The translations under genes were made by a program, and so were the position numbers. From Bacilli bacterium (GTDB lineage Bacteria > Bacillota_I > Bacilli_A > RF39 > UBA660), in contig JAZNOG010000039.1 in assembly GCA_045580645.1 (NCBI GenBank), positions 1 through 43,299 on the forward strand: DNA of 43,299 nt. Direction: 5' to 3'. Below are positions 19,185-23,153 of this stretch, one piece after another. Under the pieces are notes generated by a model, which saw only the letters and a program-made list of their open reading frames with translations, was not told the DNA's origin and did no database searches. Within the stretch, counting starts at the first letter, position 1; every line of letters starts with the position of its first letter.

Positions 19185-19730
19185 TCATATTTCCATTAAA
19201 TCTTTTTCCTTTTCTTTTACAAGTTCTTCAACTATTTTATTATAGTCATTAACTACATTTTGTAAATTATCAATTGTATTTTTTTCTACATCCTCTGGAA
19301 GCTTACCATCTTTAATATCTTCAATAACATCCCTTCTAATATTTCTAATAGCTATTCTTCCTTCTTCAGCATATTCCTTAACTTGTTTTACAAGTTCTCT
19401 TCTTCTTTCTTCAGTAAGTGGTGGAATAGTAATAAAAACTGATTCTCCATTATTATTTGGAGTAACACCTAAATTAGCTTCAAAAATAGCTTTTTCTATA
19501 GCACCTAAAATAGATCTATCAAAAGGTTTAATATTTAATTGTCTAGCTTCTGGAACAGAAATGGTAGCAAGTTGTTTAACAGGCGTAGGAACACCATAAT
19601 AAGATACCATAACAGAATCTAACATACTAGGATTAGCACGTCCTGCACGAACTGTTGCAAATCTATCTTCTAAATTCACAATTGCTTTATCCATTTTTTC
19701 TCTTGCTAAACTTAAATAATCAATATTCAT
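19185..19730 (-). CDS. frr: Ribosome recycling factor
   Basis: RFATVRAGRANPSMLD and PPLTEERRRELVK. The start is set at the ATG at 19730 with a GAGGAGA SD. The stop is TGA. Confidence 0.93.
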   Translation of the reverse strand: MNIDYLSLAREKMDKAIVNLEDRFATVRAGRANPSMLDSVMVSYYGVPTPVKQLATISVPEARQLNIKPFDRSILGAIEKAIFEANLGVTPNNNGESVFITIPPLTEERRRELVKQVKEYAEEGRIAIRNIRRDVIEDIKDGKLPEDVEKNTIDNLQNVVNDYNKIVEELVKEKEKDLMEI

Positions 19731-19775
19731 ATATTCATCTCTCCTCACATTAATTATACTATTTTAAAAGAAAAA

Positions 19776-19817: not shown

Positions 19818-20696
19818 CTATCCATTGATTTGATTCATTACTTCTTCAGCAAAATTATCATTTCTTTTTTCAATACCTTCTCCAACTTCATATCTTATCA
19901 TACTGATAACTTCCATTCCATTGTTTTTAGCGTATTGTCCAACAGAAAGACCTGAATCTTTAATAAATGGTTGTTCTACAAGACATACTTCTTTATAGTA
20001 TTTTTTAATACGTCCTTCAACCATTTTTTCTGCTATTTCTGGAGTTTTTCCTTCATTAATAGCTTGTTCCTTATATATTTCTCTTTCTTTATTAAGTGCT
20101 TCTTCTGAAACACTAGAACTATCTAAATATAAAGGATTCATAGCAGCAACATGCATTGCTACATCCTTTGCTACATCTTTATCATTACCTTTTAAAACTG
20201 CAAGTGAAGTAATTCTTCCACCCATATGAGAATAAATTCCAAATACTTCATCATCATTTTTAACTACTTTTTCAAATCTTCTAAAACTAATTTTTTCTCC
20301 GATTTTAGCAGTTAATGCTACTACTGCATCAGCTATTGAAACTTTTTCATCTTCCATAATTTCTTTTTCTGCTTCTTCTATTGTTTTAGCATTACTATCA
20401 AATAAAGTTTTTGCTATATGATGAATTAAAGTTTTAAATTCTTCATTTCTAGCAACAAAATCTGTTTCACAATTTACTTCAACAATAACTCCATTGTTAT
20501 CATTACTTACAGCAAGTGTAAGCCCTTCTGCAGCAATTCTTTCCGCTTTCTTAGCAGCTTTAGAAATACCTTTTTCGCGAAGCCAAGTAATAGCTTCTTC
20601 CATATTTCCGTTAGATTCTTGTAGAGCCTTCTTGCAATCCATCATTCCAGCTCCAGTTTTTTCTCTTAACTCTTTAATATCTTGAGCACTAAACAT
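19818..20696 (-). CDS. tsf: Elongation factor Ts
   Basis: LREKTGAGMMDCKKAL UBA-like N-terminus; typical length. Confidence 0.95.
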   Translation of the reverse strand: MFSAQDIKELREKTGAGMMDCKKALQESNGNMEEAITWLREKGISKAAKKAERIAAEGLTLAVSNDNNGVIVEVNCETDFVARNEEFKTLIHHIAKTLFDSNAKTIEEAEKEIMEDEKVSIADAVVALTAKIGEKISFRRFEKVVKNDDEVFGIYSHMGGRITSLAVLKGNDKDVAKDVAMHVAAMNPLYLDSSSVSEEALNKEREIYKEQAINEGKTPEIAEKMVEGRIKKYYKEVCLVEQPFIKDSGLSVGQYAKNNGMEVISMIRYEVGEGIEKRNDNFAEEVMNQING

Positions 20697-20709: not shown

Positions 20710-21642
20710 TTATTTTAATTTTTCTATTAATTCAGCTTTTTTCATTGTGCTATAACCTTTAACTTCTTTATCTTTAGCCATTGCTTTTAATTCTGCTAAA
20801 GTTAAATCTTCAAGATTAACACTTTCTTTTACTTCTTCCTTTTTAACTTCCTTTTTTTCATTAGAAGTTTTAACTACTTTTTCTTCTTTCTTTACTTCTT
20901 TTTTAACTTCTTCTTTATCATGAGTTTCATTTTTATATTCAGTTACATAATTAATTACTTCATTACCATTAACTTCTGCAATTGCATTAGTTAAAGCACC
21001 AATAACTAATTTAACAGCTCTAACTGCATCGTCATTAGCAGGAATTACATAATCAACCATATCTGGATCACAATTTGTATCAACAATACCAAATACAGGT
21101 ATTTTTAATTTTCTTGCTTCCTTAATAGCAGTTTCTTCTGCTCTTGGATCAACAATAATAAGTGCATTAGGTAATTTCTTCATTTCTCTGATACCACAAA
21201 GATTTTTATTTAATTTTTCATATTCTTTTTTAATCTTAATAACTTCTTTTTTAGGTAATAATTCTAATACACCATCTTGTTCCATTTTTTCAATTTCTTC
21301 AAGTTTTTTAATTCTACCTCTAATAGTTCTGAAATTAGTTAAAGTTCCACCTAACCATCTTTCATTAACATAATACATGTTAGTTCTCTTAGCAGATTCT
21401 TCCATAGCTTCTTGAGCTTGTTTTTTAGTTCCAACATATAAGAATGTTCCACCATTTTCTGCTATTTCCTTAATTTTTGCATAAGCTTCTTCAATTAACT
21501 TAGCTGTTTTTTGTAAATCAATAATATAAATATCATCTCTTGATGTATAAATATATTCTCTCATTTTAGGATTCCATCTTCTCTTTTGATGTCCAAAATG
21601 AACTCCTGCTTCTAATAAATAATTCATTGACACTACTGTCAT
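20710..21642 (-). CDS. rpsB: 30S ribosomal protein S2 with a roughly 75-aa C-terminal extension (Lys/Glu linker plus Rho_N-like helix-extended-helix)
   Basis: The core is [19 protein letters not shown]... The tail is [15 protein letters not shown]...[31 protein letters not shown]. Confidence 0.93.
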
Positions 21643-21729
21643 TTTAATTCCTCCTTCGTTTTTACCTTCTATTAAATTCCAAATAATATCACCTAATTAG
21701 GCACTAGATATTACAATTCTTTAATATGA

Positions 21730-22251
21730 TTATTTTAAAGCGTTTAATAATTCAGCTTTTTTCATTGTACTATAACCTTCAATATTCTTATTTTTAGCAA
21801 GTTCTTTTAACTCTGCAACTGTCATAGCTTCAATGTTTTTTTCTTCCTTTTTAACTTCTTCTTTTTTTACTGTTTCTTTAACTACTTTTTTGTTTTCTAC
21901 TTTTCCAGTTTTAGCAACTTTTACTAAATTAGCAAAAGCTTCTTTGTCATAAATAGCAAGTTCAGATAACATTTTTCTATTAATTTCAATACCTGCTTTA
22001 TTTAATCCATCGATAAATTTAGAGTAACTAATATCATTAACTCTACACTCAGCATTAATTCTTGTAATCCATAATTTTCTAAAGTTTCTCTTAGTTTGTT
22101 TACGATCACGATATGCATATCTATCAGAATGCATTAATTGTTCTTGTGCAGTTTTATATAATCTATGTTTACTACCAAAATATCCTTCTGCTCTTTTTAA
22201 TACCTTTTTACGTCTTGCACGTGTTGCAACACTATTCTTAACTCTTGTCAT
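21730..22251 (-). CDS. rplT: 50S ribosomal protein L20 with a roughly 58-aa C-terminal extension (Lys/Glu linker plus Rho_N-like motif)
   Basis: The core is [15 protein letters not shown]... The tail is [53 protein letters not shown]. Confidence 0.93.
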
Positions 22252-22268: not shown

Positions 22269-22466
22269 TTATATTACATTCTTGATTCTTTTTAAGTCAG
22301 AATTACTTAATTCAGAACCTTTTCTTTTGTCTCTATTAACTTTTCCAGATTTTTTACCAGTTTTGTGTAAAACTCCTCCTCTAGCTTTAGTAATAGAACC
22401 ACTTTGTCTAATGTTTAAAACTTTTTTGCTGGCTTTATGAGTTTTTGCCTTTACTTTCTTTGCCAT
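22269..22466 (-). CDS. rpmI: 50S ribosomal protein L35
   Basis: A 65-aa basic protein (KTHKASKK..) between infC and rplT. Confidence 0.93.
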   Translation of the reverse strand: MAKKVKAKTHKASKKVLNIRQSGSITKARGGVLHKTGKKSGKVNRDKRKGSELSNSDLKRIKNVI

Positions 22467-22477
22467 ATTTTTTCCTC

Positions 22478-23008
22478 CTACTTTTCTTTTTTTGGTGCAA
22501 GTAACATTGTCATGTTTCTTCCTTCAAGTTTAGCCTTTTGCTCGATAACAGCAATATCTTTAACTCTATCAGAAAATTTATTCATTATTTCTTCTCCAAG
22601 TTCAGGATGAGCCATTTGTCTTCCTTTGAACTTAATACTTAATTTAACCTTATGACCTTTTTCTAAATACTTAGAAGCATTTCTAAGTTTAGTTTCAAAA
22701 TCACCAACATCGATTACTGGTGATAAGCGATATTCCTTAAGTTCAACAGCATTTGCTTGTTGTTTTTTTCTGGCTTCCTTTTGTTTTTTAGCTTTCTCAT
22801 ACTTAAACTTGTTGTAATCCATAATCTTACATACTGCAGGATTTGCATTAGGACTAATTAATACTAAATCAAGCCCTGCATAATTTGAAATAGTTAAAGC
22901 ATCCTTTATAGGTTTAACTCCAAGTTGTTCCCCATTTGGGCCAATTACTAATACATGACTAATTTTAATTTGTTCATTACATAACAAATCATTTTCTTTG
23001 TTAGCTAT
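22478..23008 (-). CDS. infC: Translation initiation factor IF-3, probably starting at an ATA codon
   Basis: NEQIKISHVLVIGPNGEQLGV...KFKGRQMAHPELG. The SD GGAGGTG (23021-23015) lies 6 nt before ATA (23008-23006). The upstream ATG at 23023 overlaps the SD itself. Confidence 0.85.
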   Translation of the reverse strand: MANKENDLLCNEQIKISHVLVIGPNGEQLGVKPIKDALTISNYAGLDLVLISPNANPAVCKIMDYNKFKYEKAKKQKEARKKQQANAVELKEYRLSPVIDVGDFETKLRNASKYLEKGHKVKLSIKFKGRQMAHPELGEEIMNKFSDRVKDIAVIEQKAKLEGRNMTMLLAPKKEK

Positions 23009-23153
23009 ACTAAACACCTCCATAAAATATAAAAAGAATGCGAAATGCATTCTAAAATCCACACCATAAAAACATCATATAAATCATGTCTGGCTTTTGA
23101 CCTACAGCTACTCGCTATCAGGTGGATATAATACATCTCTTTCCTTTTTTACA
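23009..23153 (-). ncRNA. L20-leader-like 5' UTR with an attenuator terminator
   Basis: A roughly 145-nt leader lies between a perfect promoter and the infC SD. The terminator agaatgc/gcattct (23035-23053) plus a T-run sits just before the SD. Upstream complementary segments (AUCCACC ... GGUGUGGAU) also fit. Position and logic match the Firmicute L20 leader. Confidence 0.55.

Follow-up and report, generated by a model that had tools for sequence, protein, structure and literature searches.

The C-terminal tails of the ribosomal proteins uS2 and bL20 (hereafter S2 and L20) encoded by the rpsB and rplT genes of a Bacilli bacterium of the RF39 lineage (contig JAZNOG010000039.1 of assembly GCA_045580645.1; the whole stretch of 43,299 nucleotides that was analysed is called the window below) consist of a Lys/Glu-rich linker and a small module of the helix-extended loop-helix (HeH) class, and can be compared with several described proteins. 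The N-terminal helical subdomain of the termination factor Rho (PDB entries 7oqh, 8hsj and 3l0o) belongs to the same HeH family, and a profile of the tails aligns to about residues 12-90 of it. The tails of S2 and L20, however, are C-terminal, stand on a disordered linker, and come without the OB-fold RNA-binding domain or the RecA-type ATPase. In the window, Pfam finds just Ribosomal_S2 or Ribosomal_L20 together with Rho_N in the two proteins, and the NCBIfam rho models match 35 residues of the tails with 14.5-17 bits, against cut-offs of 315 and 509. The tailed S2 and L20 are not Rho and cannot terminate transcription. The SAP domains (PF02037), as in Ku70 (1jjr and 1jeq) and yeast Tho1 (1h1j and 4uzw), are of the same HeH fold class and have a conserved pattern of hydrophobic residues and Lys, but they are mainly eukaryotic binders of DNA or RNA, whereas the tails in the window are bacterial and score below the SAP cut-off. 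The best functional analogue is RHON1 of Arabidopsis (At1g06190), which likewise bears a Rho-N domain of about 40 amino acids at the C-terminus of an unrelated protein; the isolated 40-amino-acid domain binds single-stranded RNA, including fragments of the 16S and 23S species (PMC3458557). RHON1 differs in being a plant chloroplast protein and a partner of RNase E, not a ribosomal protein (PMC3458557), and the likeness to the tails meant here is one of domain type.

Additional domains at the ends of S2 and L20 have also been catalogued. The NCBIfam entry NF011109 (PRK14537), named '50S ribosomal protein L20/unknown domain fusion protein', is a curated L20 with an extra C-terminal region; it covers L20 only and gives no function. 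L20 of the window scores 166.7 bits against this model, short of its cut-off of 187, and both tails taken alone align to positions ~153-224 of it. Two further entries, NF051451 and NF051450, describe a 'sunset domain variant' of the same two proteins, S2 and L20, respectively, with a different small C-terminal domain. S2 and L20 of the window match these models over the core and part of the linker only (1-265 of 382 and 1-151 of 219), the terminal positions being unmatched, with 295.3 bits against a cut-off of 710 for NF051451 and 136 against 375 for NF051450. Taken with the tails described here, these families suggest that the ends of S2 and L20 accept tethered small domains repeatedly.

The bL21 protein of Flavobacteriia (P0442, P0468 and P0508, the last from Allomuricauda sp. 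NBRC 101325, on a 1.6-Mb contig) is likewise built of a core, a low-complexity linker and a terminal Rho_N module. Its module is 64-80% identical (BLASTP, over 80-95% of a 44-residue query) to an S2 tail from those relatives of the window in which rplT and rpsB are not adjacent (see below), a likeness that reflects either module transfer between phyla or very strong constraint. The differences are that it is another ribosomal protein, in another phylum, with an Ala/Lys/Pro-rich linker instead of the Lys/Glu-rich one found here. Lastly, lineage-specific and mostly disordered extensions were reported on 11 of the 52 ribosomal proteins of Mycoplasma pneumoniae, a Mollicute with a reduced genome, with functions that are largely obscure and a disruption that affects fitness (Xue et al. 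2022, PMC9534751); the text consulted speaks neither of a single folded domain common to the two subunits nor of exchange between genes. Literature searches on Rho_N, SAP and sunset domains with ribosomal proteins, and on ribosomal protein extensions in RF39, returned no paper on the present fusions. Thus, the HeH tails of S2 and L20 are partly catalogued in databases, and undescribed in the literature searched.

The tails of S2 and L20 in the window

Both fusions are encoded by open reading frames (ORFs). The parts of the two genes are listed here with the evidence for each, which includes AlphaFold2 (AF2) models and their predicted local distance difference test (pLDDT) scores:

20710-21642, minus strand: rpsB, S2 with C-terminal extension, 310 amino acids plus stop (ORF)
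20947-21642, minus strand: S2 core, residues 1-232 (Pfam and NCBIfam matches; confident AF2 model)
20815-20946, minus strand: S2 Lys/Glu-rich linker, residues 233-276 (AF2 pLDDT <50 at residues 235-274)
20713-20814, minus strand: S2 HeH module, Rho_N type, residues 277-310 (Pfam Rho_N; stop codon at 20710-20712)
21730-22251, minus strand: rplT, L20 with C-terminal extension, 173 amino acids plus stop (ORF)
21832-21900, minus strand: L20 Lys/Glu-rich linker, residues 118-140 (AF2 pLDDT <50 at residues 120-138)
21733-21831, minus strand: L20 HeH module, Rho_N type, residues 141-173 (Pfam Rho_N; stop codon at 21730-21732)

The ORFs confirm the lengths and positions given for S2 and L20 in an earlier note, which had been made from the letters of this stretch alone, and contain the peptides that it quoted from the two tails. 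Both proteins are recognized as the bacterial forms by the equivalog models: S2 scores 335.9 bits against TIGR01011 (rpsB_bact; cut-off 76.3) and L20 scores 157 bits against TIGR01032 (cut-off 65.65), with the Pfam families Ribosomal_S2 at residues 9-223 of S2 (327.9 bits) and Ribosomal_L20 at residues 3-109 of L20 (150.4 bits). Following the linkers, Rho_N (PF07498; gathering cut-off 24.9 bits) was detected at residues 277-309 of S2 (34.0 bits) and at residues 141-172 of L20 (36.5 bits), in both cases above the cut-off, and the isolated tails of S2 and L20 scored 38.5 and 37.5 bits. When a profile of the tails was compared with PDB sequences, it matched the N-termini of Rho (7oqh, E-value 3e-7; 8hsj, 6e-5; 3l0o, 1e-3), the SAP domain of Ku70 (1jjr, 9e-11, summed over two stretches of 22 bits each; 1jeq, 4e-3) and that of Tho1 (6e-3). 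The SAP model itself (cut-off 23.9 bits) reached 15.5-20.0 bits on both tails, over the same residues as Rho_N, and HeH/LEM (PF12949; cut-off 28.9 bits) reached 16.8-19.8 bits on the L20 tail, the S2 tail being unlisted; the relationship of the tails to SAP is at the level of clan or fold only. Thus, the earlier interpretation of both extensions as a Lys/Glu linker followed by a Rho_N-type HeH module is borne out by PF07498 and by the PDB matches to Rho, Ku70 and Tho1, but the SAP and HeH/LEM models, which the same hidden Markov model (HMM) check covered, stay below their cut-offs.

The AF2 models, based on alignments of relatives, are confident for the cores of both S2 and L20. In the S2 module they place helices at residues 282-291 and 302-309 (pLDDT 83-85) and in the L20 module at residues 145-154 and 165-172 (pLDDT 78-79), in each case with an extended loop between them; both modules, of 33 amino acids, are thus predicted to have the helix-extended loop-helix fold.

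A search of 1.84 billion representative proteins with a profile of the module gave 12,476 matches. The best 150 of these 12,476, ordered by copy number, are mainly multi-copy HeH proteins of unrelated kinds, and the top module-bearing proteins are all called Rho_N by Pfam as well, 113 of 136 also matching SAP. With so many matches, and with multi-copy HeH proteins of many kinds at the top, the module is a member of a very common and mobile class of domains, a breadth that says little about ribosomes. Closer to the locus, an HMM built from the module and run against all ORFs of the window and of 80 related loci (see below) found no further carrier; its one extra match was the rplT tail of locus L009, which is parted from its core by Ns.

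Spread and conservation of the fusions

The best 120 clusters of L20 homologues (76-96% identical, 168-179 amino acids) all have Ribosomal_L20 plus Rho_N, and the best 120 clusters of S2 homologues (299-524 amino acids) all have Ribosomal_S2 plus Rho_N. A scan of one genome per species gave 80 loci, which together with the window make a set of 81 S2 genes: 78 carry the module, two have a basic tail instead and one is cut by a contig end. Nearly all of the 80 loci come from metagenome-assembled genomes of uncultured gut 'Bacilli', 'Tenericutes' or 'Mycoplasma' from humans, rabbits, ruminants and birds. They include Acholeplasma sp. CAG:878, Candidatus Coprosoma and Candidatus Fimihabitans, names that we take to be assigned to the RF39 order.

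A repeated module and a low-complexity coding sequence for Lys and Glu can mislead assemblers, and chimera-like proteins on short contigs (the tail on S16, Jag, EF-Ts or unrelated N-termini), as well as odd joints in Logan contigs, do occur. Even so, it is extremely improbable that unrelated ORFs were fused to the ribosomal genes by misassembly or a frameshift. The same in-frame architecture is found across hundreds of independent assemblies; a contig from another public run, possibly from the source sample of the window, covers tsf and the tail, linker and core end of S2 free of gaps; indels in the L20 linker of a related strain keep the frame (-1/+1; -1/-2); and the module shows purifying selection (see below). 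Frameshift or assembly error is refuted for the S2 and L20 fusions by the independent assemblies, the gap-free contig and the frame-keeping indels. Neither of the two outcomes that the earlier note had named as fatal to its proposal, namely tails parted from the cores by sequencing or frameshift errors, or tails with no HeH/Rho_N similarity in HMM searches, was encountered.

Other apparent carriers of the tail were seen in P0392, P0393, P0394, P0396, P0399, P0400, P0408 and P0434, in which it is joined to S16, Jag_N, EF-Ts or unrelated N-termini. These were not accepted as fusions: each rests on one contig of just 0.5-1.8 kb, and several are mis-called C-terminal fragments of S2. In addition, Logan contigs contain joints between the rpsB and rplT tails. 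The S16, Jag and EF-Ts fusions and the joints are most likely assembly or gene-calling chimeras arising from the repeated module, among which there could still be a real S16 or Jag fusion. In P0121 (524 amino acids) and P0123 (452 amino acids), both on contigs of ~2.6 kb, the C-terminal half of the S2 core occurs twice ahead of the linker and module, which is probably an artefact of assembling a tandem repeat. In practice, the repeated module calls for caution with metagenome catalogues, in which it gives rise to short chimeric contigs and to odd 'fusion proteins'.

The two parts of the tails differ in their conservation. The S2 linker measures 38-127 amino acids in 71 orthologues (median 70; 25% Lys and 22% Glu) and cannot be aligned between genomes, and the L20 linker measures 20-60 amino acids in 32 orthologues (median 46); those of the window have ~44 and ~23 residues, respectively. 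Lys, Glu, Val and Thr predominate in both, and the net charge is near zero. In 59 aligned modules, four columns are invariant (Leu, Ala and the Lys-Lys just before helix 2, so that the MKK pair preceding this helix is included) and one more is nearly so. Moreover, in the clade in which the two genes are not adjacent, identity amounts to 83% for the S2 core and 74% for the module, and the two are correlated (r = 0.66). These figures point to purifying selection on the module and to a linker that is free to vary in length and sequence.

Loss of the HeH module was found for L20 in at least five of 38 genomes and for S2 in two of 80. In these genes, namely rplT of L013, L014, L020, L025 and L038 and rpsB of L074 and L079, a low-complexity tail rich in lysine, of the K/T/A or K/V/A kind, stands in place of the module. 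Such replacement tails, for example ...KKTTTKKTTAKKTTKKEEK and ...KKAPAKKVVAKVAKKTVKK, call to mind tails of the histone H1 type.

Age of the fusions and exchange of modules between rplT and rpsB

The infC-rpmI-rplT and rpsB-tsf-frr genes form separate operons in most bacteria. In the window, whose G+C content is 24-34%, and in 38 of the 80 related loci, they are joined as one cluster of translation genes, which in the window runs as follows (rplT and rpsB are listed above):

22478-23062, minus strand: infC
22269-22466, minus strand: rpmI
21730-22251, minus strand: rplT
20710-21642, minus strand: rpsB
19818-20696, minus strand: tsf
19185-19748, minus strand: frr

In most of the remaining loci, no rplT lies within 4 kb of rpsB, and the joined cluster looks like one rearrangement marking a sub-clade. 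A tree of the S2 cores of the 81 genomes, which was quick and is weakly resolved (39 of 78 inner branches have <80% support, and counts of changes on it are approximate), has two large groups, one of 39 loci without rplT within 4 kb of rpsB and one of 41 loci, including the window, with rplT directly upstream of rpsB. On long contigs of the non-adjacent type, the genes downstream of rplT are unrelated ones (Rce1-like, Fic, Mur ligase and others) instead of rpsB. The S2 module is present in both groups, and L20 proteins with cores typical of the non-adjacent group also carry Rho_N. With the module on S2 and on L20 in both groups, both fusions are therefore older than the rearrangement that made the genes neighbours, and they are old, lineage-wide features of these uncultured, AT-rich gut Bacilli.

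The earlier note had argued, from the similarity of the two tails in DNA, for a recent duplication of the module between the two genes. Its observation as such was confirmed. The 20-mer AATTCAGCTTTTTTCATTGT occurs exactly twice in the window:

20729-20748, plus strand: shared 20-mer, copy in the 3'-end of rpsB (exact match; the minus strand encodes TMKKAEL)
21749-21768, plus strand: shared 20-mer, copy in the 3'-end of rplT (exact match)

The chance expectation is 0.01, and none of 100 shuffled sequences had two or more copies. After one mismatch both copies continue with CTATAACCTT, so that 20-mer and 10-mer together have 30 of 31 nucleotides in common, and the ends of rpsB and rplT as a whole form a 135-nt direct repeat, 1020 nt apart, with 72% identity. 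The modules are identical at 22 of 36 residues (61%) and at 73-77% of nucleotides, depending on the stretch counted; they are homologous, but the description 'nearly the same motif' was somewhat generous. At 17 of the 22 identical residues the codon is the same, whereas general codon usage predicts 12.8 such residues (P = 0.04) and that of highly expressed genes 14.1 (P = 0.12).

A recent duplication in this genome is nevertheless very unlikely. The 30 of 31 shared nucleotides and the codon excess over general usage speak for it, as does the GYSTMKK motif, which L20 of the window shares with S2 where 93 of 120 close L20 clusters have GYTSMKK, making a very short patch of conversion possible. 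Against this, the modules as a whole are just 61% identical in protein and 73% in DNA, and the codon excess fades when the codon usage of highly expressed genes is taken as reference. The 33-nt stretch that contains the 20-mer is identical at 27-31 of 33 positions between any two tails of the clade, whether orthologous or paralogous, and the 5' part of the L20 tail is nearer to orthologous L20 tails than to the S2 tail of its own genome (49 of 60 nucleotides in common with L20 of L001, 38 of 60 with S2). Within the sub-clade of the window, moreover, the two modules are of distinct and fixed types: S2 tails are of type A ('KGYSTMKK') in 120 of 120 clusters and L20 tails of type C ('EGY(T/S)(S/T)MKK') in 116 of 120. 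Micro-conversion of GYTS to GYST in L20 of the window was considered and is not demonstrable, as two substitutions suffice and the segment is near-invariant in all tails. The claim of a recent duplication in the window is thus largely refuted by fusions that predate the split of the clades, by the distinct types, by the conserved segment and by marginal codon sharing; the DNA match reflects a strongly conserved peptide and extreme codon bias, and no recent copy.

Exchange of the module between the neighbouring genes is real in relatives, where the idea of the earlier note does hold, but not supported in the window. In L022, L011 and L075 the S2 and L20 modules are 97%, 96% and 92% identical in nucleotide sequence; identity falls to 45-57% in the adjoining upstream linker and to 22-38% after the stop codon, the borders being sharp in L022 and L011. 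In L081, which belongs to the wider clade of the window, S2 sequence replaces the 3' half of the L20 module only. The S2 tail changed type at least seven times on the S2-core tree, and exchange ran in both directions: S2 gained L20-type modules (types B and C), and L20 of L022, L023 and L066 bears an S2-type module (type A). S2 tails of types other than A are found in 15 of 39 adjacent genomes versus one of 38 non-adjacent ones. Overall, S2 and L20 tails are more alike within a genome (0.68) than between genomes (0.56), a value reached in none of 10,000 permutations of a test that ignores phylogeny. In the adjacent clade the S2 core is 85% identical and the module 57%, with r = 0.28, that is, the module is uncoupled from the core. 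The L20 and S2 tails of the non-adjacent clade also have a feature in common, 'ELR' in place of ELK, which hints at concerted change without adjacency; the hint is a weak one because those L20 proteins were found by their likeness to an S2 tail. With near-identical, sharply bounded tracts inside otherwise diverged genes, and a distribution in conflict with the tree, gene conversion between the two modules has taken place in the relatives; it is not supported in the window, with its 73% nucleotide identity and a codon P of 0.04-0.12.

Where the rearrangement put rplT directly upstream of rpsB, the modules are direct repeats ~1 kb apart. In this adjacent clade, gene conversion has time and again copied one module over the other, from S2 to L20 as well as from L20 to S2, while the modules of the sub-lineage of the window stayed distinct. 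The locus also offers a clear-cut case in nature of gene conversion recurring between parts of two genes that are essential and not homologous.

The region between rplT and rpsB has a conserved feature of its own:

21643-21729, minus strand: rplT-rpsB intergenic region with conserved structured RNA, candidate rpsB leader (RNAalifold)

In an alignment of 51 loci, RNAalifold predicted 18 pairs upstream of rpsB, 14 of them with compensatory changes; they form a hairpin of two nested helices, built around an invariant CTAGTGCC...GGTG core (loci L003-L077, in the 90 nt before rpsB). Genomes with a non-adjacent rplT have the element ahead of rpsB as well, preceded there by a TATAAT box. Rfam contained nothing similar, whether the gathering score or E ≤ 1 was applied as threshold. 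The element at 21643-21729 is probably a leader through which S2 regulates its own synthesis, and one that Rfam still lacks.

Possible roles of the tails

In ribosome structures, uS2 is found on the solvent face of the 30S subunit and bL20 on that of the 50S subunit. The interpretation we favour, to which we give a probability of about 0.55, is that the tails of S2 and L20 are old fusions that serve as tethered nucleic-acid-binding arms of low specificity, with the same ligand on both subunits. On the solvent face of either subunit the tail would form a flexible arm, whose terminal HeH domain would bind nucleic acid with low specificity. Candidate ligands are nascent or messenger RNA, rRNA of the assembling ribosome itself, and the AT-rich chromosome. 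The tails of S2 and L20 would be functionally interchangeable, which would imply one common ligand. We infer this from the class of the domain, the design of the linker, the free exchange of the module and the lysine-rich replacements. The Rho_N scores of S2 and L20, the matches to SAP and Rho structures and the RNA binding of RHON1 were all counted in its favour, and the lysine-rich replacement tails are as expected if a general polyanion binder suffices.

Several points weigh against nucleic-acid-binding arms. The main RNA-binding site of Rho is the OB fold and not the N-terminal helix bundle. Homology to Rho_N is weak evidence for RNA binding because Rho binds mainly through this OB fold, and SAP and HeH domains also mediate protein contacts. 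In addition, the module is just mildly basic and the linker is net neutral, not basic. Finally, the shared ligand is deduced solely from interchangeability, which could be neutral.

Two other explanations of the tails deserve consideration. One is that the module is a handle for protein-protein contacts, the HeH modules on 30S and 50S binding one common protein or each other. The partner could be an RNase or degradosome component, RNA polymerase or a Nus factor, a hibernation factor, or a membrane or cytoskeletal anchor, and the effect would be to recruit that factor, or to cluster or pair ribosomes. Tails that are alike within a genome and freely swapped are what would be expected if both fit one partner, and some lineage signatures are common to both paralogues (ELR in the non-adjacent clade, 'KKQEL' in both tails of L029); RHON1, too, works in complex with RNase E (PMC3458557). 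However, that simple lysine-rich tails replace the module in several genomes accords better with a polyanion as ligand than with a specific interface to a protein, the solved structures nearest to the module are nucleic-acid-binding SAP and Rho_N domains, the ELR signature is in part a bias of the search, since those L20 tails were chosen for their likeness to an S2 tail, and no conserved partner gene adjoins the locus. We regard a protein handle as rather unlikely.

The other explanation takes the tail for a passenger or physical spacer, be it a charged 'entropic bristle', a solubility aid or a neutral add-on spread by gene conversion, and this we consider improbable. The unconstrained length and sequence of the linker would suit such a role, and so would the loss of HeH from L20 in at least five of 38 genomes and from S2 in two of 80; furthermore, mostly disordered extensions of obscure function are common on bacterial ribosomal proteins (PMC9534751). 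A neutral passenger is unlikely, however, because the module is conserved: it is 74% identical where the S2 core is 83% identical in the clade without conversion, it has invariant residues, it is kept in nearly all 81 S2 genes and in all 240 top clusters, and a closely similar module stands on bL21 in another phylum.

The favoured idea of nucleic-acid-binding arms can be carried further, to a more speculative form that we think doubtful. The modules of uS2 and bL20, and of bL21 in Flavobacteriia, might be matched ribosome 'handles' for one ligand, kept alike by selection and not by proximity alone, which would hold ribosomes or assembling subunits on the AT-rich chromosome or on nascent transcripts. 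If this were true, the tails would amount to a built-in coupling of translation to transcription, or to a spatial organisation of ribosomes, in gut bacteria with reduced genomes, and they would possibly stand in for lost mRNA capture of the S1 type or for lost coupling factors.

Extensions of ribosomal proteins are widespread in bacteria and almost wholly unexplained. In the present case the extension goes beyond a disordered tail: it is a folded domain that can be recognised as belonging to a nucleic-acid-binding class, and one protein of each subunit carries it. Its conservation in a large group of uncultured bacteria from the guts of animals and humans, its exchange between genes, its replacement by lysine-rich tails and the occurrence of a near-identical module on bL21 elsewhere add weight to the case, which raises the concrete question of what a ribosome gains from a tethered RNA- or DNA-binding arm.

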